Below, piece after piece: positions 513 through 49,962 of a DNA stretch of 64,000 nt. Every line of letters starts with the position of its first letter. Position 1 is the first letter of the stretch. This stretch comes from a virus. Its lineage: Duplodnaviria > Heunggongvirae > Uroviricota > Caudoviricetes. Where the stretch lies: the IMG/VR virus record IMGVR_UViG_2740892449_000004. One strand, given 5' to 3'. The position numbers and the translations under genes were made by a program. The notes below the pieces were generated by a model, which ran no database searches, had not been told where the DNA came from, and saw only the letters and a list, made by a program, of their open reading frames with translations.

Positions 513-1364
513 ATGATAAATTATGTCTACGGCGAACAACTGTACCAGGAGTTCGTCAGCTTCAGGGATCTCTTTCTAAAAAAAGCTGTTGCACGCGCCC
601 AACACGTTGATGCCGCCAGCGACGGTCGTCCTGTACGCCCGGTTGTCGTTCTGCCGTTCAAAGAAACGGACAGCATTCAGGCTGAAATTGATAAATGGAC
701 TTTAATGGCGCGAGAACTGGAACAGTACCCAGACCTCAATATCCCAAAGACTATTTTATATCCAGTGCCTAACATCCTTCGCGGTGTGCGTAAGGTTACA
801 ACTTATCAGACAGAAGCTGTGAACAGCGTCAACATGACCGCTGGCCGCATTATTCATCTGATTGATAAGGACATTCGCATCCAGAAAAGCGCGGGGATCA
901 ATGAGCACAGTGCGAAATACATAGAGAACCTGGAAGCAACAAAAGAGCTAATGAAGCAGTACCCGGAGGATGAAAAATTCCGTATGCGTGTACACGGCTT
1001 TAGCGAAACAATGCTGCGCGTCCATTACATTTCCAGTAGCCCTAACTACAATGATGGTAAATCAGTTAGTTACCATGTGCCGCTGTGTGGTGTGTTTATC
1101 TGCGATGAAACTCTCCGTGATGGAATCATCATCAACGGTGAATTCGAGAAAGCAAAATTTAGCCTTTATGACTCTATAGAACCGATCATCTGCGACCGCT
1201 GGCCGCAGGCAAAAATATATCGCCTGGCAGATATTGAAAATGTAAAAAAACAAATTGCCATCACTCGCGAAGAGAAAAAGGTCAAATCAGCCGCATCAGT
1301 TACGCGCAGCCGTAAAACTAAGAAGGGGCAGCCAGTAAACGACAACCCCGAAAGCGCGCAATAG
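513..1364 (+). CDS. c1: C1 repressor of lysogeny
   Basis: 283-aa ORF; sequence and length match recalled P1 C1; its cognate 17-bp operators recur across the window. Confidence 0.85.
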   Translation: MINYVYGEQLYQEFVSFRDLFLKKAVARAQHVDAASDGRPVRPVVVLPFKETDSIQAEIDKWTLMARELEQYPDLNIPKTILYPVPNILRGVRKVTTYQTEAVNSVNMTAGRIIHLIDKDIRIQKSAGINEHSAKYIENLEATKELMKQYPEDEKFRMRVHGFSETMLRVHYISSSPNYNDGKSVSYHVPLCGVFICDETLRDGIIINGEFEKAKFSLYDSIEPIICDRWPQAKIYRLADIENVKKQIAITREEKKVKSAASVTRSRKTKKGQPVNDNPESAQ

Positions 1365-2873: not shown

Positions 2874-4066
2874 TAATCATCATCCCCGTACAGTTTGCGG
2901 GTAACTTCTTCGTCTTCCTCCTCGTCTTCGTCCAGATCCTGTTCAAGCCATGCTTCGTTTGATATGCCTTCCGCATCGACATCACCATAACCACCTGTAT
3001 CGACGATATCGGCAATTTCTTCTCTACGATGCTCAATCCACAATGCGGCATCAGCGCGGCGGCTGGCGGCCCGTTCTCGCGCGATTTTATCCAGATCTTC
3101 AAGTGATGGAGCGCCAGATGCTGTTTGGTTTTCCTCATCATCGGTATTGGTCTTAGGAGCACGCAGATCGGCTTTGATTTGCTCCAGCATCAGGGGCGGC
3201 ACTTTTCCTCCATGCGCCTCGATGAATTCAGCCGCTTCCAGCACTGACCAGTTATTTTCACGCTTTCGTTCGTATGCCAGCTTAACAATGCCAGCTTGCC
3301 CCATAGATAAAGCGTGCTTTTCCGCCTCCCGGCTTTCTTTTCGATAGTTATTCCGGATGCTGTAAATGGTGTTGATCAGGCTGCTTATCTGCGCGGAACA
3401 GCTGTTTAGCATGCTCGCGATACGGTATTCAGGCGGAGTACCTTCATCATCGTCTTTTTGCTGATCGCGCATTTCCTGCACCAGGCGAATACACGTATCC
3501 CTGGCGTTCTCCAGCATAAGGAGATGAGAAAGAGACTTTTCCAGAAGAGTGGTTTCCAGAACATCGGCCCCGGACCGACGCAACATAGCGCGCGCGGCCT
3601 TCCGCGCTTCAACGTTATCTATCAGGTAATCGCCAGCTTCGAATTCAAAGCGTTCACCATCATCATCCAGGGTGTCGCGTTCCAGGCGATCACGTAAGGT
3701 CCGGTGGGCGCGGGTGATCACGTCATGATCATCTGAACGATCATTTATGCGCTTATTTTGGCGCTTAGCGTTCTCGACTGCGGCACTGACAACGGCATTA
3801 ACTCTTTGTTTTTCCGCTGTTTCATCCGCAAGGTGATCACCTGCATGTTGATCATTAGAGTGATCAATGATCATGCTTTTTAGAGGCTTCCTGACTGGCT
3901 TATTTGGCTTGCGGCTGTCCGCTGTCCTGGTGTCTTCTTTGAAGGCACGGAGATAACGACGTGCGGTATTAGGGTTAAGATTAAACTCGGCGGCATACTG
4001 TGCGATGGTGTAACCACCATCTCGCGCCAGGCGAGCAAAATTCTTCTTGTGATCGTCCCAGGTCAC
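2873..4066 (-). CDS. pacA: Terminase small subunit PacA (contains pac)
   Basis: 397-aa ORF with N-terminal HTH-like region and acidic C-terminus; GATC-hexamer pac clusters lie inside it. Confidence 0.85.
3710..3878. other. pac packaging site (Dam-methylatable TGATCA/G hexamer clusters)
   Basis: GATC at 3716, 3727, 3739 (left cluster) and 3834, 3850, 3862, 3869 (right cluster), a 3+4 arrangement as described for P1 pac. Confidence 0.6.
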
Positions 4067-7384: not shown

Positions 7385-7416
7385 AAGAAACCTCCAGGAG
7401 TTAGTGGATCAGGCAC

Positions 7417-7767
7417 ATGCACAATAACGTTCTCAATGTTAGCCGTTCAATTCAGACAATCAGAGACTGCACCAGTGTGGTGGCATCAATCCCATTGCGA
7501 AACAGCATAGACGAACTGCAAATTCGTGTATTGAATCCGAATCAGGCTAATAAGCAATTGCGCTTTATTTTGACGCTGAAAAGTGAAACAGAGGGGATAA
7601 AGCACAGCGTAAAAGTGTTTTCTGAGGCCATTCTGCTTAATGGGAAGCTCCGGCATCTGGTAAGGCCAGAACGTCAATATCCTGACGTCCTGGCGCGTGA
7701 AAAAGACCTTCTTTCTGAAGTTCAGGATAGGGTGATCGATTTCGTCAAATGCTATCCCCTGCATTGA
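7417..7767 (+). CDS. Hypothetical protein on opposite strand
   Basis: 116-aa plus-strand ORF that exactly fills the gap between two leftward genes; no recognisable domain. Confidence 0.3.
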   Translation: MHNNVLNVSRSIQTIRDCTSVVASIPLRNSIDELQIRVLNPNQANKQLRFILTLKSETEGIKHSVKVFSEAILLNGKLRHLVRPERQYPDVLAREKDLLSEVQDRVIDFVKCYPLH

Positions 7768-8003
7768 GGGCAGGTGTTCCCTTCCGCAAAGTAGGGAAAA
7801 TTGCTATCAAGTTCATCACACCATCTGCGATGGTCGTAGCACCAAAACGCCTCCCACGGTGCACGGAAATACTTCATCCACCAGGACACTCGATCAGGTA
7901 TATCTGCTGGTGGCAGTTCTTCTGGCAATAATTTGCCTGATAATTCCCTTTCCGCCCGCGACAGCATTTTTTTTGAGGCTCGCGTTCTCTTTTTCAAGCT
8001 CAT
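7752..8003 (-). CDS. Hypothetical small protein with CxxC
   Basis: 83-aa ORF, C-terminal CPQCRG. Confidence 0.45.
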   Translation of the reverse strand: MSLKKRTRASKKMLSRAERELSGKLLPEELPPADIPDRVSWWMKYFRAPWEAFWCYDHRRWCDELDSNFPYFAEGNTCPQCRG

Positions 8004-8020
8004 CTACGCGCACCTGTAAT

Positions 8021-8671
8021 TCAGCTTTCGTTGGCATGGTCCACCTCATGCTTTTCAGCCACCAGCGGCAATAAAGCCCTGGCCATCTTATGAACCAATA
8101 GTGCATCAATAATGCCAAGCGTATGCCCCGGCTTAATGTTTAATGCCGCCTCAAGGCGACACCTTTCCAGGCCACTTTTCTCGGCTTGTTTATGATGATC
8201 TGGTGTAATAACGTCGCCCAAAACACGGCTAATTCTTTCTCGTAATTGCTGGGTGCCAGCACACTTGATCGCTGTATCGTGGAGACGGTTAACCAGTTCG
8301 CGATAAACATGCGGCTTAATTCGGATACGTTCACCGGTGACGCCCTTTCCTGGTGCTGGCACCGAACTATCCGGAATATCCGGATAGTTGCCAGCCTCGT
8401 AAGCTACCCGCAGCCAGTGCATGAATGTTTCAGTGGACACACAACCACAGTCCACATCGATTTTCCCGCGTTGCTGTTCCAGCCAATGCTCAAAATTCAA
8501 TCTACACGTATTACTTTCATGTTGCTCTTTTTGTCTCAAGGCCAGCATCTGCTGGGCTATTTCCAATACTTCATCTGCCGTATATCCAGCACCGTGACCA
8601 TACATTTCGATACGGGAAATAATCTCTGATATGCGCTCTTCAGTGATTCTGGTCATTTCTTTTTGCGCCAT
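8021..8671 (-). CDS. Hypothetical protein
   Basis: 216-aa ORF in leftward accessory operon. Confidence 0.5.
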   Translation of the reverse strand: MAQKEMTRITEERISEIISRIEMYGHGAGYTADEVLEIAQQMLALRQKEQHESNTCRLNFEHWLEQQRGKIDVDCGCVSTETFMHWLRVAYEAGNYPDIPDSSVPAPGKGVTGERIRIKPHVYRELVNRLHDTAIKCAGTQQLRERISRVLGDVITPDHHKQAEKSGLERCRLEAALNIKPGHTLGIIDALLVHKMARALLPLVAEKHEVDHANES

Positions 8672-9027
8672 TTCTTTTCACATTCCTTAGTCCATTTTTC
8701 AATGTTCATTTTGGCAATATCAGTCATTCCATCACCTAAGAAATACTTTTTCCGGTACGTCTTGCACTTAAACCACACTACAACAGCCACCAACCAGAAA
8801 ATAAAAGGCCATACAGCAATACCAACTCCAGCCGCGATAAAGCCCAATAGCCATAAATGAAGCTCTCCAACTTCTGTTTGCGGCAATATTCTTAAAGAAT
8901 TAAACAGCAGACTGAAGGAATGGTCGTATGCATTGGCGGTATAAGACATGCAATCCATATAATTAAAGTCATAGCCTGCGGCTGCCGCCCATAATGGGCG
9001 GTCAAGAAAATGTTTTAGTGTCATCAT
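8653..9027 (-). CDS. Hypothetical membrane protein
   Basis: 124-aa ORF with two hydrophobic helices (LWLLGFIAAGVGIAVWPFIFWLVAVVVWF). Confidence 0.5.
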   Translation of the reverse strand: MMTLKHFLDRPLWAAAAGYDFNYMDCMSYTANAYDHSFSLLFNSLRILPQTEVGELHLWLLGFIAAGVGIAVWPFIFWLVAVVVWFKCKTYRKKYFLGDGMTDIAKMNIEKWTKECEKKWRKKK

Positions 9028-9033
9028 ATAAAT

Positions 9034-9327
9034 TTAAGGTTCAGACCAGTTATCTTCAATAGCAATGCTTAATCTTTGTAGCCATTCTGCTAATTTCAGC
9101 ATTGCTTCTCTTTCGCTTAAACCACGAGGAAAATCATCAAGCGAAATTGTTGGCTTGAAGCCCCCGTAATTATCCATTTCAACAGTCAGATTTTGCTCCA
9201 GAACGGTATTTCTTACGCGGCTATTGTGCCGAAGCAAATATACTGAACGTGATTTATTGGTTTTGTGGTCGAACGTATATTCGGTAAGTATCATCTGACT
9301 TCCGCCATGATTATTACCGCGCCACAT
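9034..9327 (-). CDS. Hypothetical protein
   Basis: 97-aa ORF. Confidence 0.5.
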   Translation of the reverse strand: MWRGNNHGGSQMILTEYTFDHKTNKSRSVYLLRHNSRVRNTVLEQNLTVEMDNYGGFKPTISLDDFPRGLSEREAMLKLAEWLQRLSIAIEDNWSEP

Positions 9328-9350
9328 AATTACTCCGTGTTAATTGAAAT

Positions 9351-9632
9351 TTAGCTATTAATCTTCACTTTTATCGCGAACACCTTTACCGGTTTATCAC
9401 CGAAGTGTGGATGTGTGATTGTTTTTATTTCATATCCGTTATACGGGACGTCAATTCTGCGACTGAAGTCTTCGCGCTTCGGATATCCCTTTGTGATAAT
9501 CAGGCGGTCATACTCGCGGAACATAATTCGCTTATTCCAGTAGTCATTACACAGGCGATACTCTTCCGTTTTCTCTCCGCGAATCATGGCATCGAAGTAT
9601 TCACCTTTAACGGCAAGTTGCAGGTTAGCCAT
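9351..9632 (-). CDS. ASCH-like small protein
   Basis: about 93 codons from MANLQLAVKGEYFDAMIRGEKTEEYR; start overlaps upstream stop. Confidence 0.45.
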   Translation of the reverse strand: MANLQLAVKGEYFDAMIRGEKTEEYRLCNDYWNKRIMFREYDRLIITKGYPKREDFSRRIDVPYNGYEIKTITHPHFGDKPVKVFAIKVKINS

Positions 9633-9892
9633 TACCTCACCTCCAGTCTCCATACCGCCTGACCAATCCGGCTGGCATGGGTATCTTTGGATACTGTTCC
9701 GTCTTTAGCCAGCTCCATAAGAATTTTGCGCAAATCTGCCGAACGCCATTCTTCATCAGGAAATTCCTTCTCCATTGCCAACCGCAGATTCCAGGTTGCC
9801 ATCCTGAATGGATATTCCCCGCCGAGAGCTTTATCTTGCAGGGCAGCCCGGGAACGCATCACCTGCAAAACCTTCTCTTTTACATCCATCAT
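9632..9892 (-). CDS. Hypothetical protein
   Basis: 86 codons from MMDVKEK; ATGA start/stop overlap with upstream gene. Confidence 0.45.
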   Translation of the reverse strand: MMDVKEKVLQVMRSRAALQDKALGGEYPFRMATWNLRLAMEKEFPDEEWRSADLRKILMELAKDGTVSKDTHASRIGQAVWRLEVR

Positions 9893-10746
9893 TTCGCCTC
9901 CTGCGGCGGTTCTGGTAGCGGCATCCAGAACAAGGCGTTCCCTAACCACGATAAAGTGCCGTCGCTCAACTCCACGTATTCCCCTTGTACCTGTCCTGCC
10001 ATATACTCGCCGTGCTTTGAATAAATTAAAATCCAATCATCTTGAGGGGGCATTCGCTCACTACAGCTTATCCAACCATCCGGAGTTACCGGAGAGTTGC
10101 CTGCCAGTCTACGCAAAACAGCCTTAACAGCCTCAATACGGTCATCATCGTAACTTTCCGCCGTATCTATGCGGTCGAGCATGATGATTGCGTTATCAAT
10201 ATCAGGATTGCCGGTCCACTCATTACCGCGATTGGATTCGGCAGCCTGGTTGCCGCGTACTGGTTGATTGTCGGCTTTACCCAGTCTGTCGTCGCTGCAT
10301 GAATGCCCTTCCAGCCAGGCCAATGCTTGTCGCATGAAATACGCAATATGTTTTCCGTGGTAATCGTCTTCATCGATGTGAAAAGCGATACTACGAATGT
10401 ATTCAATTGCGTTTTCAATGGCCTCTAACGCTATCGGCGCTGGCGGAGTGGTATATAGTTTTCGACATTTGTATATCCAACCGGCATGGTCAGGCGTGTC
10501 TGTAAAACGCAAATCGTCTTCGTAGCACTCACGACTACGTTCTTTCCATTCCGTCCACGGAACACCGCTATTCCAGGTGGGGCGAGTGCAGGACTGATAC
10601 AGAACAGGCTCTGCTTCCAGCGATGCCAGCACGATACGCGCCAGTTCTTCCGCTTCTTCTGCTGGCAGTACAACGTTGCTATCAGGTCCGTATGTTTCGC
10701 GCCACTGCTTGATTGTCAGCAGTCGCTCTTTGGTAATAGTGATCAT
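9889..10746 (-). CDS. DUF551-like phage protein
   Basis: 285-aa ORF ending in the WMPLPEPP motif recalled as typical of DUF551. Confidence 0.5.
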   Translation of the reverse strand: MITITKERLLTIKQWRETYGPDSNVVLPAEEAEELARIVLASLEAEPVLYQSCTRPTWNSGVPWTEWKERSRECYEDDLRFTDTPDHAGWIYKCRKLYTTPPAPIALEAIENAIEYIRSIAFHIDEDDYHGKHIAYFMRQALAWLEGHSCSDDRLGKADNQPVRGNQAAESNRGNEWTGNPDIDNAIIMLDRIDTAESYDDDRIEAVKAVLRRLAGNSPVTPDGWISCSERMPPQDDWILIYSKHGEYMAGQVQGEYVELSDGTLSWLGNALFWMPLPEPPQEAK

Positions 10747-10822
10747 GCCGCGTTTCCTTCTTTCTTATTAACAATTACACCGTCATATATTTCATTAAGG
10801 TGCCCTCTCAACTCCATGCGCC

Positions 10823-11257
10823 TTAATGCAGATAACATGTAATCGCATTCAACCTGCTTATTCCCAATAAAAGGTTTATCTTCAGGGTTACCCCAACAGC
10901 AATTACCCTTGGGCCACCCATGTACTTTCCGTACTCTTCCGTTAACAACGTGAAGTAATCCCCAGCCAGGTGGTAAATCCTCAATTGAAATAATTCCCGC
11001 TCACTAATAAAGAATCGCCAGTCGCCCATTCCAAGAGACGGATTTTTACGAAAACGCTTTTTTCTATCTGCCAACAAATCAGCACGAGAACACTTCGCCT
11101 CTATCAGGCATGATGCTGAATTTCTGAACCCCATAGCATCTGGCTGTTCTCCGGTACTGGTTACAGCTATAAAGCGGTCATGAAAACAAACCTTGAACCC
11201 GTTGCGCTTAAGGAACTTGTACGCAATCTGACAGAGTTCGCGGTGTGTTAACGCCAT
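10823..11257 (-). CDS. PD-(D/E)xK nuclease-like protein (putative)
   Basis: about 145 codons from MALTHRELCQ; motif PDAMGF...CLIEAKCS. Confidence 0.4.
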   Translation of the reverse strand: MALTHRELCQIAYKFLKRNGFKVCFHDRFIAVTSTGEQPDAMGFRNSASCLIEAKCSRADLLADRKKRFRKNPSLGMGDWRFFISERELFQLRIYHLAGDYFTLLTEEYGKYMGGPRVIAVGVTLKINLLLGISRLNAITCYLH

Positions 11258-11258
11258 A

Positions 11259-11447
11259 TCACTCTCCTTTAGTGCGCAAATGGTTTTTCCAGCGGTTTTG
11301 CGCCGCGCTGGGCTTTTTGCAAAAACCACAATCCATCATCCCGTAATATTTCATCAACCCCATCCGTCGGTTGCTGAGTCTCACCCACTGCCAGACGCCA
11401 GGAGCGTTTCTACGAACTAACAGAATCTTTGCTTTACGGTTTTTCAT
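11259..11447 (-). CDS. Small basic protein (MKNRKAK family, copy 2)
   Basis: 62-aa ORF; start ATG overlaps stop of upstream paralog (ATGA). Confidence 0.35.
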   Translation of the reverse strand: MKNRKAKILLVRRNAPGVWQWVRLSNRRMGLMKYYGMMDCGFCKKPSAAQNRWKNHLRTKGE

Positions 11448-11620
11448 CTTACTGCGTACCCTTTCTTCCGCCTGTTCTGTGACGCAGTAGGCTTACGCTT
11501 TGCGGCAAAAGCCACCTGACCAAATGGATGGAGTACCGCTATCTTATGGTTGCTAATAACCAGCTCCACCACACGCACAGGTCGCTGTAAAAAAAGTCGT
11601 TTTGCCTTACGGTTTTTCAT
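11444..11620 (-). CDS. Small basic protein (MKNRKAK family, copy 1)
   Basis: 54 codons, AGGAGA ribosome-binding site 9 nt upstream; shares N-terminus MKNRKAK and C-terminal KRKP.A.QNR with copy 2; below the 60-aa ORF-track cutoff. Confidence 0.3.
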   Translation of the reverse strand: MKNRKAKRLFLQRPVRVVELVISNHKIAVLHPFGQVAFAAKRKPTASQNRRKKGYAVR

Positions 11621-11792
11621 CGCTTTGCTCTCCTGCGTCTCTTTGCTACTCGTCGTGCCGCTGCAATACCGGTATGGCGGCGCTTTGGTGCTGGGGTGAT
11701 GTTGTCAGCCATCAGGACCTGTGGCTTTGCAATTAGCGCAGAAGCCCAAAAACGAGTCGGGTACGGTAACAAGCCAATACATGCCACACGCA

Positions 11793-12281
11793 CTACTCAC
11801 CTCCGTTGATGCGAATGCCTGTTGCAATGCTGTTTATGATGCTGTCAGTGCATGGGGTAGAAAGCTGGGCATCTCCAGCAATTTTCATAACATCAACATC
11901 TGCATATCGAATACCGAGGTGTATCAGACCGGCTATACCTGACTTAAGCCGAGCATTTTCCATAAACAGATCCTTTGCCCGCTGTTTTTCTGCCTCAAGC
12001 TCAACGCGCAACTTCCCTACCGTTAGCGCAATATCCTCGTTCTCCTGGTCGCGGCGTTTGATGTATTGCTGGTTTCTTTCCCGTTCATCCAGAAGCGCCA
12101 GCACGGTTTCTGGTCCGGTCAGAAATTTGAAGGCGTTGAGCGCATCAATATCCACACCGTAATCTTTAAGTTCCTGTTCACTTAACAAATCATCATCAGC
12201 TGGCAACATTAACAGGCGTTCCATTGCTGGAATTGCACGTTCCGCCGCCTCACGCAGTGCCTGGTAATTAATTTCGCTCAC
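11793..12281 (-). CDS. Ea22-like modular protein (GTG start)
   Basis: 162-aa ORF starting (V)SEINYQALREAA, GTGA overlap with upstream stop. Confidence 0.5.
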   Translation of the reverse strand: MSEINYQALREAAERAIPAMERLLMLPADDDLLSEQELKDYGVDIDALNAFKFLTGPETVLALLDERERNQQYIKRRDQENEDIALTVGKLRVELEAEKQRAKDLFMENARLKSGIAGLIHLGIRYADVDVMKIAGDAQLSTPCTDSIINSIATGIRINGGE

Positions 12282-12925
12282 TGGTTGCCTCCTTTGCGAA
12301 GCTCAGCGGCGAAGGCTACTGCGTGATCATGATGTTCAAGTGTGTATGCACACTCCGCAAACATCTCCACGCCCTGCGCCCGTACTTCAGCCAGGAAAGC
12401 ATCGGTGGCTGGCATATTTCCTGTTGCCTTCATGGCCTCCAAAATAACCAGAACGCCATCTCGCCCAACCACCTCAGCGATAACCTCGGTGTTGTCGCCA
12501 ACAACATCGCAGAATGCCTGAACTGCCTTACGAGCCAGCTCATTCTCCACTGCCAGCGCCGTGCGATTACCCTCCAGCTCTGCAATGCGCTGTTTTGCGG
12601 CATCCAGTTCAATCGACAATTTTTCCAACTGCTCTTGATGCTTCTTGTATTCCTGATATGCGTGCCAAGACTGACCTTTGCGCACACTATCAGTGATATC
12701 AGTAATCTGTTCTGGTGTTAGCGTGGTCAGTGGCTGTGATGGGAAAATAAGCACTTTCCCGGAATCCCAATCAAAACCAGCGTGAATTGACTGAACCTCA
12801 ACTGAAGGTGTTGAACCAATGCTGCCAGGCGAATGAACAACGATTGTTACATCCATATCGCGACGATGGCTGTGGTTGTTGGACAAAATACGATTCACCA
12901 ACTCAGAAAATTTGGAAAATTTCAT
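12278..12925 (-). CDS. Ea22-like modular protein
   Basis: 215-aa ORF ending AELRKGGNQ; shares ATDAFLAE.RA segment with 13209..13910. Confidence 0.5.
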   Translation of the reverse strand: MKFSKFSELVNRILSNNHSHRRDMDVTIVVHSPGSIGSTPSVEVQSIHAGFDWDSGKVLIFPSQPLTTLTPEQITDITDSVRKGQSWHAYQEYKKHQEQLEKLSIELDAAKQRIAELEGNRTALAVENELARKAVQAFCDVVGDNTEVIAEVVGRDGVLVILEAMKATGNMPATDAFLAEVRAQGVEMFAECAYTLEHHDHAVAFAAELRKGGNQ

Positions 12926-13212
12926 GCTGATTCCCCTTTCTCTGCTCTCTCCTGTCGGAACATCACTATCATCAGGTCGCCTTTTGTCGCTATCCTGGCT
13001 GTTGTACCTGGTTCAATGCGGCTAAGCTCAAATGCGTCATAGAACGCTTCTAATGCCTTCTGGCGTAGTTCCTGTTTGCGCCGTTTTTTCCACTGTTTTA
13101 GGAAAATGGAACCCAGCCATCGCCATGTACGGGACATGATGTAAAGCCAACCGAGAAGTGCCAGACCGGTATTTAGGAGCGTATCGATCGTTATTGTCGT
13201 GTCGATATTCAC
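12922..13212 (-). CDS. Small membrane protein (GTG start)
   Basis: about 96 codons from (V)NIDTTITID with AAGGAAG ribosome-binding site; one TM helix. Confidence 0.4.
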   Translation of the reverse strand: MNIDTTITIDTLLNTGLALLGWLYIMSRTWRWLGSIFLKQWKKRRKQELRQKALEAFYDAFELSRIEPGTTARIATKGDLMIVMFRQERAEKGESA

Positions 13213-13910
13213 TGGCTGCTTCCTTTGCGAATCTGTTCCGCCCATTCTTCAAGGGATTTCTCCGCATATTCACCAGACAGGCCATCAATCGGATGCGCTT
13301 CATTAGCCAACTCTTCTTTCGCTGACAAAATCATGCGTGTAACGTCGAAAACTTCACGCAAAGACTTATTGATAAATCCGTGATTGAACGCAGCAGCAAG
13401 ACGGCTGGCGGTATAGTTAATCCCCTCGTTGCGTGCTTCCGCACGAATTTCAGCCAGAAAAGCATCGGTAGCTGGAGTTTCGCTGTGGTGTAGGGCATCG
13501 TTGATAATCATTGCAGCAACACCAGCCTGCCCTGCATCCGTGACCGACACATGCTCAAGAGTTACGGCCATTGCGTGTTTCAGCCCGGCGTTCTCTGCCA
13601 CCAGCGCCGCGAGCTTAGTCTCAAGCGGTGCTATTCGGCACATAGCATCAATATTTGTGTCCTCCAGGCGCTTAATTTCACCAAGTAGCGCCAGTGCAAC
13701 CTTTGGGTTGAATGCGGCAACATAACGAGCGTTGTTCTCTGCGTTTTTCAGCCCATCAAAGCCGGTCCATTTGATAACATCTTCACATCGTTTATCACCG
13801 GGCGTATGCACCGCATACGTACCAGTACCCGGCGAAATAAATGCGACCCATTCGCCCTGTGTTGCCTGTTTTGCTATCTCACGCAGTGCCCGGTAATTAA
13901 TTTTGCTCAC
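13209..13910 (-). CDS. Ea22-like modular protein (GTG start)
   Basis: about 233 codons from (V)SKINYRALREIA, ends EQIRKGSSQ. Confidence 0.5.
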   Translation of the reverse strand: MSKINYRALREIAKQATQGEWVAFISPGTGTYAVHTPGDKRCEDVIKWTGFDGLKNAENNARYVAAFNPKVALALLGEIKRLEDTNIDAMCRIAPLETKLAALVAENAGLKHAMAVTLEHVSVTDAGQAGVAAMIINDALHHSETPATDAFLAEIRAEARNEGINYTASRLAAAFNHGFINKSLREVFDVTRMILSAKEELANEAHPIDGLSGEYAEKSLEEWAEQIRKGSSQ

Positions 13911-14146
13911 TGGCTGCCTCCTTTGCGGAGTTGCGCTTCGATGCACGAAAAAAAAGACTCCCGAGTATGACTGTTAAGAGCTGGTGCGAACGCCGCGTTA
14001 AGAACGGCAGCATCACAGCCGTCATCAATATAGAGCGCAATTTTTTTCTCCAGGCGCGCTTTGGCTTCCTGCAACTGCATACCCCGGCACGCACGCGGGA
14101 TATAATCAGCAATTTGAGCGATAGCTTTTTCGTTCTGTTTAAACAT
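13907..14146 (-). CDS. Small protein ending LRKGGSQ
   Basis: 79-aa ORF, C-terminal motif shared with downstream paralogs. Confidence 0.45.
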   Translation of the reverse strand: MFKQNEKAIAQIADYIPRACRGMQLQEAKARLEKKIALYIDDGCDAAVLNAAFAPALNSHTRESFFSCIEAQLRKGGSQ

Positions 14147-14342
14147 GCTTCACCTCGATAGGCTTGATGGTGTCTAACAGCAGTCGACGGCGCGTATTTT
14201 CTGCAAAGTGGCGGCGTCCGGTATCTTTGTGGTAAAACTCATTTTTGCCGACGACCCACATCCGCTCTGTTTGGTGCAGTTTTTTTACCTGCGGACCGTC
14301 TTTGGTGATCACGGTGCCGGTATGGGTTTTTACGATTGTCAT
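14139..14342 (-). CDS. Hypothetical small protein
   Basis: 67-aa ORF, 8-nt overlap with next gene. Confidence 0.35.
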   Translation of the reverse strand: MTIVKTHTGTVITKDGPQVKKLHQTERMWVVGKNEFYHKDTGRRHFAENTRRRLLLDTIKPIEVKHV

Positions 14343-14425
14343 GCCACTACCTATTCGAACAGATGAACGAGACAGGCTGATGCTCGTCCACCTGAAAAAC
14401 TGACGATTTGATGCATACTCACGGT

Positions 14426-15154
14426 TTATTCCTGAATGCGCTTAAACTCGATTACCCACACCCAGGGATTAGCGTTCCAGCTTTCTTCACCATAGATGGA
14501 TTCCCACAGGCGCTGGAACGCAACCTTGGCCATTGCGAAATCCCCCTTGGGAGTAAGGAATGTTCCCGGGTGATCAGGAAGCAAACTTCCAGCAGGCGGA
14601 ACGCCCTCAGCCCTTGCATCGCATTCGCTGATATCGTTCAACCGTTCAACGCGCACGTTGGTAATTTCCAACAGAATGCGTGATGCCCATCGCGGCATGT
14701 GAATTGATGGACGCCACCCACCATCAAACTTTTCATTCACAGTGTGAGGTTTCCAGTCGGCATCATCGGGTATCGACCATAAGCCGTAATCACCAGGTTT
14801 TTGCTCGCAACTGGCCCGATAAATCCTTGCTGCGTTCTTCTCATCGCCACGACAAAGGTTGTCGTTCCAGTCCACACTGCAACCATCCTCATTGCCTAAT
14901 ATCGCCCATGTTTCACGAACCCAAATTCGATCGCCGACGATACCAAAGGGGCAATTGAAAACACTGCTTACACCATCAGCCCCGTACCACTGAAAACCTG
15001 CACCAATTTCCCTAACCATCACTGGTGCTTCTGGACCAACTTCCGCAGGCTGATTTTTCATTATCCGCCGCGTCTGCGTTTTCCTTCCTTCGAGGATGGC
15101 TCGGACCATCTCATCGTTGAAAATCATGCCGCGCTCTTTCACTTCGCCTTTCAT
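14426..15154 (-). CDS. Hypothetical protein
   Basis: 242-aa ORF with AAGGGGGA ribosome-binding site. Confidence 0.55.
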   Translation of the reverse strand: MKGEVKERGMIFNDEMVRAILEGRKTQTRRIMKNQPAEVGPEAPVMVREIGAGFQWYGADGVSSVFNCPFGIVGDRIWVRETWAILGNEDGCSVDWNDNLCRGDEKNAARIYRASCEQKPGDYGLWSIPDDADWKPHTVNEKFDGGWRPSIHMPRWASRILLEITNVRVERLNDISECDARAEGVPPAGSLLPDHPGTFLTPKGDFAMAKVAFQRLWESIYGEESWNANPWVWVIEFKRIQE

Positions 15155-15163
15155 GCATCCCCC

Positions 15164-15250
15164 TTACCCATGCGCGACGATGCCGCCAAAAGTGATAGAG
15201 AACAGCCAGAAATAGATCGCGGCCATAATGATTTTGAATGCCGTGTTCAT
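15164..15250 (-). CDS. 28-codon hydrophobic peptide (candidate small membrane toxin or leader peptide)
   Basis: ATG with AGGAG 8 nt upstream; MNTAFKIIMAAIYFWLFSITFGGIVAHG; stop 9 nt before next gene; below ORF-track cutoff. Confidence 0.35.
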   Translation of the reverse strand: MNTAFKIIMAAIYFWLFSITFGGIVAHG

Positions 15251-15278
15251 ATTTTCAGCTCCTGTGATTGATTAGATA

Positions 15279-15309
15279 CATGCCGCGCCTTGCGGCATGT
15301 TTTTATTTT
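15279..15309 (+). terminator. Rho-independent terminator on plus strand (antisense to leftward operon)
   Basis: CATGCCGC-GCCTT-GCGGCATG hairpin followed by TTTTTATTTT on the plus strand only. Confidence 0.5.
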
Positions 15310-15332
15310 CACTTTCCCTGCTTTAAAAATCA

Positions 15333-15349
15333 AGATTTATTAGAGCAAT
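15333..15349 (-). promoter_or_regulatory. C1 operator
   Basis: reverse complement ATTGCTCTAATAAATCT, 16/17. Confidence 0.5.
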
Positions 15350-15855
15350 TACTGCTGATGAAGAAGCGCATTTTCATACTCCCTGACCATTAACGTAAGC
15401 ACGCCGTGTCTCCTGAAAACACGCGCCACTTCAATCTTATCTTCCAGCGCGAACGCAATTTTACTTAGACCAATTTTCTTAAGGAGATCAATCTTTGCTG
15501 GGCCGTCATTTCTGTCATCGGTGGCAGGGCGCATAGATAGCAAAGGCTCAGCCCCGTTTGTTACGTACTTCCGCAGCCAAGCTCGTGTTTTATCCCTTGC
15601 GATCTCACAGCGCCCGGTTACAAACCAGACCGTGTAAACGTTAAATAACTGGCGCACAATATCAATAACTGGAGTTATGGGAGTATCAGTGTCACAGGCG
15701 AGATTAAACTCGTTCCAGTCCTTTGTTAATGCACCTTTACCTGGTGGCGGAAGCAAATGCAGTCTGTCTTCCGTTGCCTCCGATATTGTTCCATCAATAT
15801 CGACTATGACGATATACGGACGTTCCTGGTGTGCGTGTTTATTGAAAATACTCAA
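15349..15855 (-). CDS. HAD-superfamily phosphatase-like protein
   Basis: 168-aa ORF with HAD motif I (IVDIDGT). Confidence 0.55.
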   Translation of the reverse strand: MSIFNKHAHQERPYIVIVDIDGTISEATEDRLHLLPPPGKGALTKDWNEFNLACDTDTPITPVIDIVRQLFNVYTVWFVTGRCEIARDKTRAWLRKYVTNGAEPLLSMRPATDDRNDGPAKIDLLKKIGLSKIAFALEDKIEVARVFRRHGVLTLMVREYENALLHQQ

Positions 15856-15928
15856 ATGCCCTCCTCATTGGACGAAAAAAATGCTGGTGGGACGCACTCC
15901 ACCAGCATTAAAAGTGACACTGTAACTA

Positions 15929-49945: not shown

Positions 49946-49962
49946 AAATTTATTAGAGCAAA
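49946..49962 (-). promoter_or_regulatory. C1 operator upstream of kilA-repL
   Basis: reverse complement TTTGCTCTAATAAATTT, 16/17. Confidence 0.55.

Follow-up and report, generated by a model that had tools for sequence, protein, structure and literature searches.

What does a very short hydrophobic gene signify when a strong transcription terminator seems to face it from the opposite strand? The question is raised by positions 15164–15309 of the IMG/VR virus record IMGVR_UViG_2740892449_000004 (Caudoviricetes), whose analysed stretch of 64,000 nucleotides (nt) is called the window here. In a first-pass annotation, a 28-codon open reading frame (ORF) on the minus strand and a convergent plus-strand terminator were taken for a possible type I toxin–antitoxin locus, with a leader peptide as the other option. 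Our analysis favours a different answer, namely that the pmgT operon of a P1-like phage-plasmid, repressed by C1, has its conserved 5′ control-and-leader cassette here, for which we estimate a probability of about 0.62. Most probably, the "antisense terminator" is the operon's own 5′ mRNA hairpin read from the wrong strand. The 28-codon ORF, for its part, is a genuine but uncharacterised small membrane-protein gene.

The C1-controlled promoter and its leader

Between positions 14900 and 15600 the pap–pmgT segment is 98% identical to bacteriophage P1, the minus strand of the window corresponding to the P1 plus strand, and a P1-like IncY plasmid of Escherichia coli matches the window at 100% over 299 bases (15102–15400). 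Judged by these matches, the window is a P1-like phage-plasmid. The site under study comprises the 98 nt between pap and pmgT and the first bases that follow downstream.

The intergenic region begins with a repressor operator. Op88, ATTGCTCTAATAAATCT (15333–15349, minus strand), is a protein_bind feature in AF234172 and overlaps both the pap stop codon and the promoter −35. It has one mismatch to the 17-bp asymmetric operator pattern ATTGCTCTAATAAATTT, of which the window holds 12 sites against 0.24 expected. In the P1 record the operator, now OpmgT and formerly Op88, is described as a monovalent C1 operator overlapping the −35 regions of two predicted promoters, P1pmgT and P2pmgT. The sigma-70 promoter P1pmgT, predicted in that record, was found here at 15305–15333 (minus strand), with −35 TTGATT (15333–15328), a 17-nt spacer and −10 GAAAAT (15310–15305). 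Its score of 10.15 makes it the best promoter-like site of the region and places it in the top 3.8% of 200-nt windows. Operator and promoter, which lie under the hairpin and T-run and are annotated in the P1 record, had been left out of the first-pass annotation. The small ORF would accordingly stand under the C1 repressor operator Op88, C1 binding being taken from the annotation, and not visibly under an antisense RNA.

Downstream of the promoter lies a G+C-rich inverted repeat, ACATGCCGC-AAGGC-GCGGCATGT on the minus strand (15278–15300), which is predicted to form a 5′ stem-loop of the mRNA on that strand and a terminator-like stem-loop on the other. The hairpin starts 5 nt after the −10, and the mRNA is predicted to start at A15298, about 7 nt after the −10. 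The hairpin is followed by a leader (15259–15273, minus strand) that carries the motif AATCAATCA (15273–15265) and the Shine-Dalgarno sequence AGGAG (15263–15259), 8 nt before the ATG of the small ORF. This leader is unpaired in the minimum-free-energy folds.

The same cassette was compared in five lineages, the P1 lineage and four others. L109 is a divergent P1-like Salmonella plasmid, reached via a tblastn match at 58% identity. The viral contigs L197 and L198 were found from synteny with PmgS (68–75% identity to the P1-lineage protein). The metagenome contig L220 was found from the DNA pattern of operator plus AATCAATCA and placed by a divergent pap just upstream. Two other approaches yielded little: a 20-mer pap anchor was too variant-specific (2 loci), and a scan of genome contigs with PmgS returned two P1-lineage loci only. 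The order operator, promoter, hairpin, CAATCAATCA motif, GGAG and ATG is common to all five lineages. The first 15 nt of the operator are identical throughout (common form ATTGCTCTAATAAAT), and the five-lineage alignment shows no variation in (C)AATCAATCA and the GGAG after it. The layout of TTG(A/T)TT, a 17-nt spacer and an A-rich −10 recurs in L109, L197, L198 and L220. The predicted hairpin begins 5–8 nt after the −10 in the five lineages, which places it at +1 to +2 from the predicted start, and it is the first element of the minimum-free-energy fold in 4/5 leaders.

The hairpin changes in sequence from lineage to lineage, its stems being ATGCCGC/GCGGCAT, AGGCCAC/GTGGCCT, AAGGCCAC/GTGGCCTT, AGCCGC/GCGGCT and GGTCGC/GCGGCC. 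In the non-P1 hairpins 92.9% of the cells are paired, against at most 62.5% with slid partners, with two compensatory pairs and one U·G pair. These counts come from four distinct gap-free non-P1 sequences (five rows, one duplicate), the P1 hairpin having been misaligned by MAFFT. U·G pairs that form in the minus-strand RNA alone occur in L220, in the common P1-lineage variant C15292T and in the variant C15285T. Within this small sample the structure of the hairpin thus appears to be conserved through sequence change.

The plus-strand signal is strong by its form, as the first-pass annotation had recognised. On that strand ACATGCCGCGCCTTGCGGCATGT (15278–15300; 10 pairs, 6 of them G–C) is followed by TTTTTATTTT, which fits the form of a rho-independent terminator, and as RNA the stem-loop reaches −15.4 kcal/mol (z = −5.5, with 0/200 shuffles as good). 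The T-run TTTTTATTTT (15301–15310, plus strand) is the complement of GAAAATAAAA, the promoter −10 with its A-tract. Outside the P1 lineage the plus-strand tail reads GAAAACAUUC, UAAUCAUUC, UGGUGGUAU or GGGGAGUAU, and no T-run is present in L109, L197, L198 or L220. Since the tail is not U-rich there, the conserved feature is the hairpin at the 5′ end of the sense transcript and not an antisense terminator. On the interpretation favoured here, the plus-strand "terminator" consists of the inverted repeat and the complement of the A-rich −10 and start region, and is not the 3′ end of an antitoxin RNA.

Similar arrangements occur elsewhere in the window. Upstream of c1 (513–1364, plus strand), the segment 402–486 (plus strand) contains a C1-operator-like AATGCACTAATAAATCT, a TATAAT box and, only a few bases further on, a 14-bp hairpin (TGGCCAACAACTC...GAGTTGTTGGCCA) just before the c1 Shine-Dalgarno sequence; the 60-nt segment folds at −31.5 kcal/mol. 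The operators at 49946–49962 and 31528–31544 (both minus strand) are each followed by a hairpin as well. It may be a recurrent feature of P1 that C1-controlled transcripts begin with a stem-loop.

The small ORF and its homologues

The small ORF (15164–15250, minus strand) encodes the 28-residue peptide MNTAFKIIMAAIYFWLFSITFGGIVAHG and would be the first cistron of the Op88-controlled operon. One transmembrane helix is predicted at residues 7–25, where the 19-residue Kyte-Doolittle window reaches 2.10. Its stop codon TAA (15166–15164) lies inside the GGGGGA of the 242-residue pmgT-like gene, 9 nt before the ATG of that gene. The ORF, its strong AGGAG and its distance from the following gene were all located as the first-pass annotation had described them. 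Nevertheless, 28 open codons are unremarkable alone (the 7 kb around the site are overlapped by 124 ORFs of at least 20 residues), so the reality of the small ORF rests on conservation.

Related phages, in which the first-pass annotation had proposed to look for the peptide, do carry it. Of the 19 phage records matched by tblastn, 18 (P1, P7, SJ46 and RCS47 included) have the peptide at 100% identity and the remaining one at 96.4%; it is also present in about 870 plasmid records. The description of the ORF as unannotated holds for the P1 reference record and for the plasmid that is 100% identical over 299 bases. It does not hold for SJ46 and RefSeq WP_001312275, in which a 44-residue extended version is annotated as a hypothetical or membrane protein, nor for a few E. 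coli O111 genomes, in which the 28-residue version is annotated. A search with the 44-residue SJ46 form returned only relatives at least 93% identical, and one with the 46-residue Salmonella form gave three clusters.

The 44-residue version starts at an in-frame ATG (15296–15298) that coincides with the predicted +1, within the 5′ arm of the hairpin, and would be leaderless. It is open in P1 itself and in most relatives; the window has TAA (15274–15272) where the relatives have CAA. As a conserved gene it was rejected, given the TAA in the window, its being out of frame or absent in the other lineages, and its non-synonymous variants.

In each of the four non-P1 lineages a syntenic homologue of 46–53 residues was found (MHTVFKLAMAAFYIWIFTIVFTGIAKATPVNASEVGVRTIYCDLGE; MNTAFKLAMAAFYFWIFCIAFNGLVKAAPTLQVIYHNDAPASNQEGSF; MNAFLKLAVTAFYIWMFTVAVTSFKPDANMKASRHLGNVSASYLCDLSGDDAL; MHLIFKLAITAFYAWMLTVVITSFKPDANMKASRYLGNLSASYDCDQQGDDSL), and all have an N-terminal transmembrane segment in common. 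Kyte-Doolittle 19-residue windows of 1.8–2.1 across the homologues indicate one transmembrane helix. A charge of +1 at the N-terminal side and of −1 or −2 in the tail favours a predicted N-in orientation. The 24 codons common to the lineages retain 56–74% nucleotide identity, with synonymous differences (pS) of 0.65–0.93, which are saturated, against non-synonymous differences (pN) of 0.16–0.39. Mean differences at codon positions 1, 2 and 3 are 0.43, 0.15 and 0.53, a pattern expected for the coding of a hydrophobic helix. With coding-type substitutions in five lineages, the hydrophobic peptide gene of the first-pass annotation is borne out. The C-terminal tail, compared between L198 and L220, has a pN of 0.12 and a pS of 0.46. 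The P1-lineage ORF ends 2–3 residues past the helix, while the sister lineages run 20–28 residues further, and the P1-lineage peptide is on this account a C-terminally shortened form.

The stop of the small ORF is separated from the next start by 9 nt in the P1 lineage and by 5 nt in L109, and overlaps it as TGATG in L197 and as ATGA in L198 and L220. In the sister lineages the small ORF is followed by the gene of a protein of about 100 residues instead of pmgT (L109 2647–2918, L197 1956–2273, L198 4127–4435 and L220 ~627–940, reverse strand). This protein has a weak, sub-threshold Pfam match to TrmB/HTH (winged-helix-like), at 21.3 bits against a cut-off of 25.6 (E = 2.5e-4). The peptides of these lineages have an AXA-like motif after the hydrophobic segment in two or three cases, and conserved tails with Y-x-C-D-L.

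Within the P1 lineage, copies differ by only about 5%, and the segment 15300–15211 is nearly invariant. Frequency-weighted diversity at third positions is 0.037, against 0.025 and 0.022 at the other two; in a motif-anchored set the values are 0.036 against 0.014 and 0.010. The first within-lineage data set was biased by the motif with which it was fetched. Variation of this kind fits a recently spread segment, and neither proves nor disproves selection on the 28-residue peptide.

The peptide has no Pfam family at E ≤ 10. NCBIfam (E ≤ 10) gave only chance TatC and nitroreductase fragments, and PHROG only weak hits of unknown function. The best E value over the three scans was 0.039, and nothing was found in them at or below E = 0.01.

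Weighing the explanations

The observed sequence anatomy, conservation and coding signature lead to the following sequence of events as the probable mode of action. In the lysogen, C1 at Op88, binding as the annotation indicates, would shut the overlapping TTGATT-17-GAAAAT promoter. When C1 is inactivated, on induction or infection, transcription would start about 7 nt after the −10, within the inverted repeat or at its foot, and the mRNA would begin with the stem-loop AUGCCGC-AAGGC-GCGGCAU. By analogy with ompA and papA, this 5′ stem-loop may protect the transcript against 5′-end-dependent decay through RppH and RNase E. The unstructured CAAUCAAUCA leader and the strong AGGAG would then drive the translation of a 28-residue single-pass membrane peptide. 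Ribosomes would end inside the next Shine-Dalgarno sequence, 9 nt before the ATG, which could couple translation to the cargo gene that follows. As for the leader-peptide option of the first-pass annotation, a short first cistron does lie directly before the 242-residue gene, but no attenuator was found between the two.

Several points weigh against this interpretation. The covariation of the hairpin comes from four distinct non-P1 sequences, and its shuffle control is weak, 39–47 of 500 shuffles being equal to it. That the hairpin lies at +1 depends on a promoter prediction, and the promoter weight matrix is approximate. In the literature consulted on the locus, P1 RNA-seq papers included, no transcript-start, half-life, translation or small-protein data were found for it. 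In codons 1–22 of the P1 lineage there are no synonymous variants and about 9 rare non-synonymous ones, and the shortened 28-residue peptide could be kept only as a translated spacer. Moreover, a DNA inverted repeat folds on both strands, and the plus-strand version of the P1 lineage is a textbook intrinsic terminator that may be used as one.

If the locus were a type I toxin–antitoxin system, a membrane toxin would be blocked by a plus-strand antisense RNA ending near 15310. The small hydrophobic ORF with its strong Shine-Dalgarno sequence is in line with that, and so are the strong terminator-like site overlapping the 5′ untranslated region (UTR) from the opposite strand and the unusual nucleotide invariance of the P1-lineage segment 15300–15211, but the near-invariance cannot be taken as evidence for an antisense RNA. 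The best plus-strand promoter candidate, ATGATT-16-TATTTT, would give an RNA of about 48 nt over the Shine-Dalgarno sequence. It is weak, its score of 6.7 being matched by 37% of random 200-nt windows with the approximate matrix, and a consensus scan found no plus-strand promoter. Plus-strand promoter-like sites in L109, L197 and L198, the three sister lineages scanned, are at background level and in non-homologous places, which leaves no conserved antisense promoter. The antisense T-run is absent in 4/5 lineages though ORF and hairpin are kept, and the U·G pairs of the natural variants fit a sense RNA, as they would be A·C mismatches in an antisense RNA. The gene, as first cistron of an operon under the C1 repressor operator, is unlike known type I toxins, and no match to Hok, Ldr, Ibs, TisB, ShoB or another toxin family was found in Pfam or NCBIfam. 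In an Rfam scan of 12–19 kb (E ≤ 10) the sole match was a sub-threshold GcvB on the plus strand, at 20.7 bits against a gathering cut-off of 42 (E = 0.29), which is taken as a chance match driven by the terminator-like hairpin. Altogether, we consider the toxin–antitoxin proposal very improbable. An equally slim chance is given to the small ORF being fortuitous, with the region consisting only of promoter, hairpin and untranslated pmgT leader. Short ORFs are abundant here and the P1 reference annotation omits this one; but start codon, Shine-Dalgarno sequence and frame are kept in five lineages at 56–74% nucleotide identity, the substitutions are of the coding type, and the hydrophobic helix is conserved.

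A more serious competitor, still unlikely in our estimate, is that the 28-codon ORF is a truncated remnant of a 46–53 codon gene, its peptide being without function and the ORF being kept for ribosome loading and against polarity on the cargo, or simply because the segment is young. The stop 2–3 residues past the transmembrane segment agrees with this, as the tails of 20–28 residues in the sister lineages are under purifying selection, and so do the homology breakpoint of cargo replacement about 4 nt past the stop (window 15160), the mostly non-synonymous variants within the lineage and the finding by CRISPRi that pmgT and pap are non-essential (PMC10695390). Nevertheless, an identical peptide is found in the vast majority of the several hundred P1-like plasmids and phages, the ORF is intact in hsd-type plasmids that have no co-directional gene after it, and frequency-weighted diversity is higher at third positions. 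The last alternative is compatible with the C1-controlled cassette and is regarded as possible, if doubtful: having gained an A/T-run, the P1-lineage repeat would serve in addition as a boundary terminator that stops plus-strand transcripts leaving the cargo bay, protecting pap, pmgRS and the Op88 promoter and terminating hsdR in plasmids with a convergent type I restriction-modification locus as cargo. The region from pmgT to humD is known to be hypervariable in P1-like phage-plasmids (PMC9603915), and homology between P1-lineage elements often ends about 4 nt past the small-ORF stop, at window 15160. In one class of plasmids the whole region is replaced by an opposite-strand type I restriction-modification locus (hsdMSR in pMB7206_1). 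In that plasmid the hsdR stop is about 80 nt from the small ORF, and on the hsdR strand no terminator-like site other than hairpin and T-run, about 190 nt downstream of hsdR, lies between the hsdR stop and pap; the P1-lineage element may therefore terminate convergent cargo. The strength of the plus-strand site and the A-run, largely kept across P1-lineage variants, are also in favour. On the other hand, the nearest plus-strand gene in the window is about 7.4 kb away (an ORF annotated in a close relative, window 7417–7767), in keeping with the remark of the first-pass annotation that none is nearby; the T-run is missing in the four other lineages, and the A-run belongs in any case to the sense promoter, as its −10 and initial region.

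The cargo border has left a trace elsewhere. About 400 plasmid records (the IncF plasmids L003 and L004, at locus positions 3001–3084, among them) hold an 84-nt relic of the small ORF at 98.8% identity. It extends from codon 3, where it is cut by IS1, to 4 nt past the stop, and is flanked by the IS1 end on one side and by the 3′ end of a type I hsdR on the other. The IncF hsd locus was apparently acquired, flank included, from a P1-like element. The presence of this relic beside the same hsdR on several hundred IncF plasmids explains the resemblance to R124/3 and EcoDXXI that the P1 record points out.

A wider proposal is speculative, and we regard it as improbable. The cassette could be a portable "expression head" bordering the cargo bay, in which a bifunctional repeat (a 5′ stabiliser in the sense direction and an insulating plus-strand terminator for type I restriction loci and other convergent cargo) is combined with an active, C1-guarded membrane effector whose synthesis is confined to induction or infection and which might, for example, depolarise the membrane, exclude superinfection or modulate a host membrane protein. 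The longer sister form, with its AXA-like site in two or three lineages, might be exported, and its gene be coupled to that of a winged-helix regulator, which would leave a signalling pair of peptide and regulator open.

Neighbouring genes and known systems

Upstream of the operator lies pap (15349–15855, minus strand), which encodes a HAD/PNKP-type phosphatase (PF25109, E = 6e-12) and whose stop codon overlaps the operator. Between pmgS and pap, at 15870–15909 (minus strand), there is a strong terminator-like site on the coding strand, an 11-bp stem followed by TTTTTCGT. From pap to the Op88 promoter no such site occurs, and transcription of pap may consequently continue into the pmgT operon. 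Downstream, the second cistron is the 242-residue pmgT-like gene (14426–15154, minus strand; ATG at 15154), whose Shine-Dalgarno sequence GGGGGA (15163–15158) abuts the small-ORF stop and whose product has no Pfam family. Since PmgT has 309 residues in the P1 record and 242 in the window, the part of the operon around pmgT is rearranged relative to P1. Directly after this gene, a 23-codon ORF (VSMHQIVSFSGGRASACLVHLFE*, window 14351–14422, minus strand) resembles the cut-off N-terminus of a PAPS-reductase-like protein (SFSGG motif). The cargo downstream of pmgT differs from the pmgU-hot-lxr set of P1: the region 7400–15150 holds about 20 small genes of lambdoid type (Ead/Ea22, DUF551, DUF1382, DUF4014 and eaa, by the annotation of the near-identical plasmid CP088508), with a single gene on the opposite strand, at 7417–7767.

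P1 is among the best-studied phages and a standard genetic tool, and P1-like phage-plasmids often carry cargo for resistance and defence. The present analysis adds a conserved small membrane-protein gene and a 5′ RNA element, both as predicted here, to the P1 reference annotation, exactly at the border of cargo exchange. It also explains why hundreds of IncF plasmids have an 84-nt piece of this gene beside their type I restriction locus, and removes a false type I toxin–antitoxin call.

Among known systems, the closest are the C1-controlled operons of P1 itself (AF234172, NC_005856), in which the same locus is found at 98% identity with the same operator, predicted promoter, pap and pmgT. The P1 reference annotation has no small ORF, hairpin or terminator between promoter and pmgT, and both the ORF and the hairpin are added here. 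Stem-loops at the 5′ terminus stabilise E. coli mRNAs, according to the studies listed in PMC3997798 (Emory 1992; Bouvet & Belasco 1992; Arnold 1998; Bricker & Belasco 1999). Like the ompA hp1 and papA stem-loops, the element described here combines a G+C-rich hairpin, predicted 0–2 nt from the 5′ end, with an unstructured leader and a strong ribosome-binding site, and it is conserved in structure rather than in sequence. It differs from them in that the opposite strand of the P1-lineage repeat has the form of an intrinsic terminator as well, and in that the start is a predicted one.

The locus shares with type I systems (hok/sok, ldr/rdl, ibs/sib, tisB/istR, shoB/ohsC and zor/orz) a peptide of less than 60 residues with one hydrophobic helix and, in the P1 lineage, a terminator-like signal on the opposite strand that overlaps the 5′ UTR. 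Unlike in those systems, no antisense promoter was found, the antisense signal is unconserved, the gene lies in a polycistronic operon with a repressor operator, and there is no match to the Hok/Gef, Ldr, Ibs, TisB, ShoB, Zor or DinQ families. The coupled short upstream cistrons of phage and bacterial operons offer another parallel, as the stop is in or next to the following Shine-Dalgarno sequence or start; here, in contrast, the peptide is conserved as a transmembrane helix and persists without a co-directional gene, and there is no attenuator structure. The locus thereby joins known kinds, namely the small phage membrane protein, the 5′ mRNA stem-loop and the repressor-controlled early operon, and is an incremental addition to these rather than a new kind of system.

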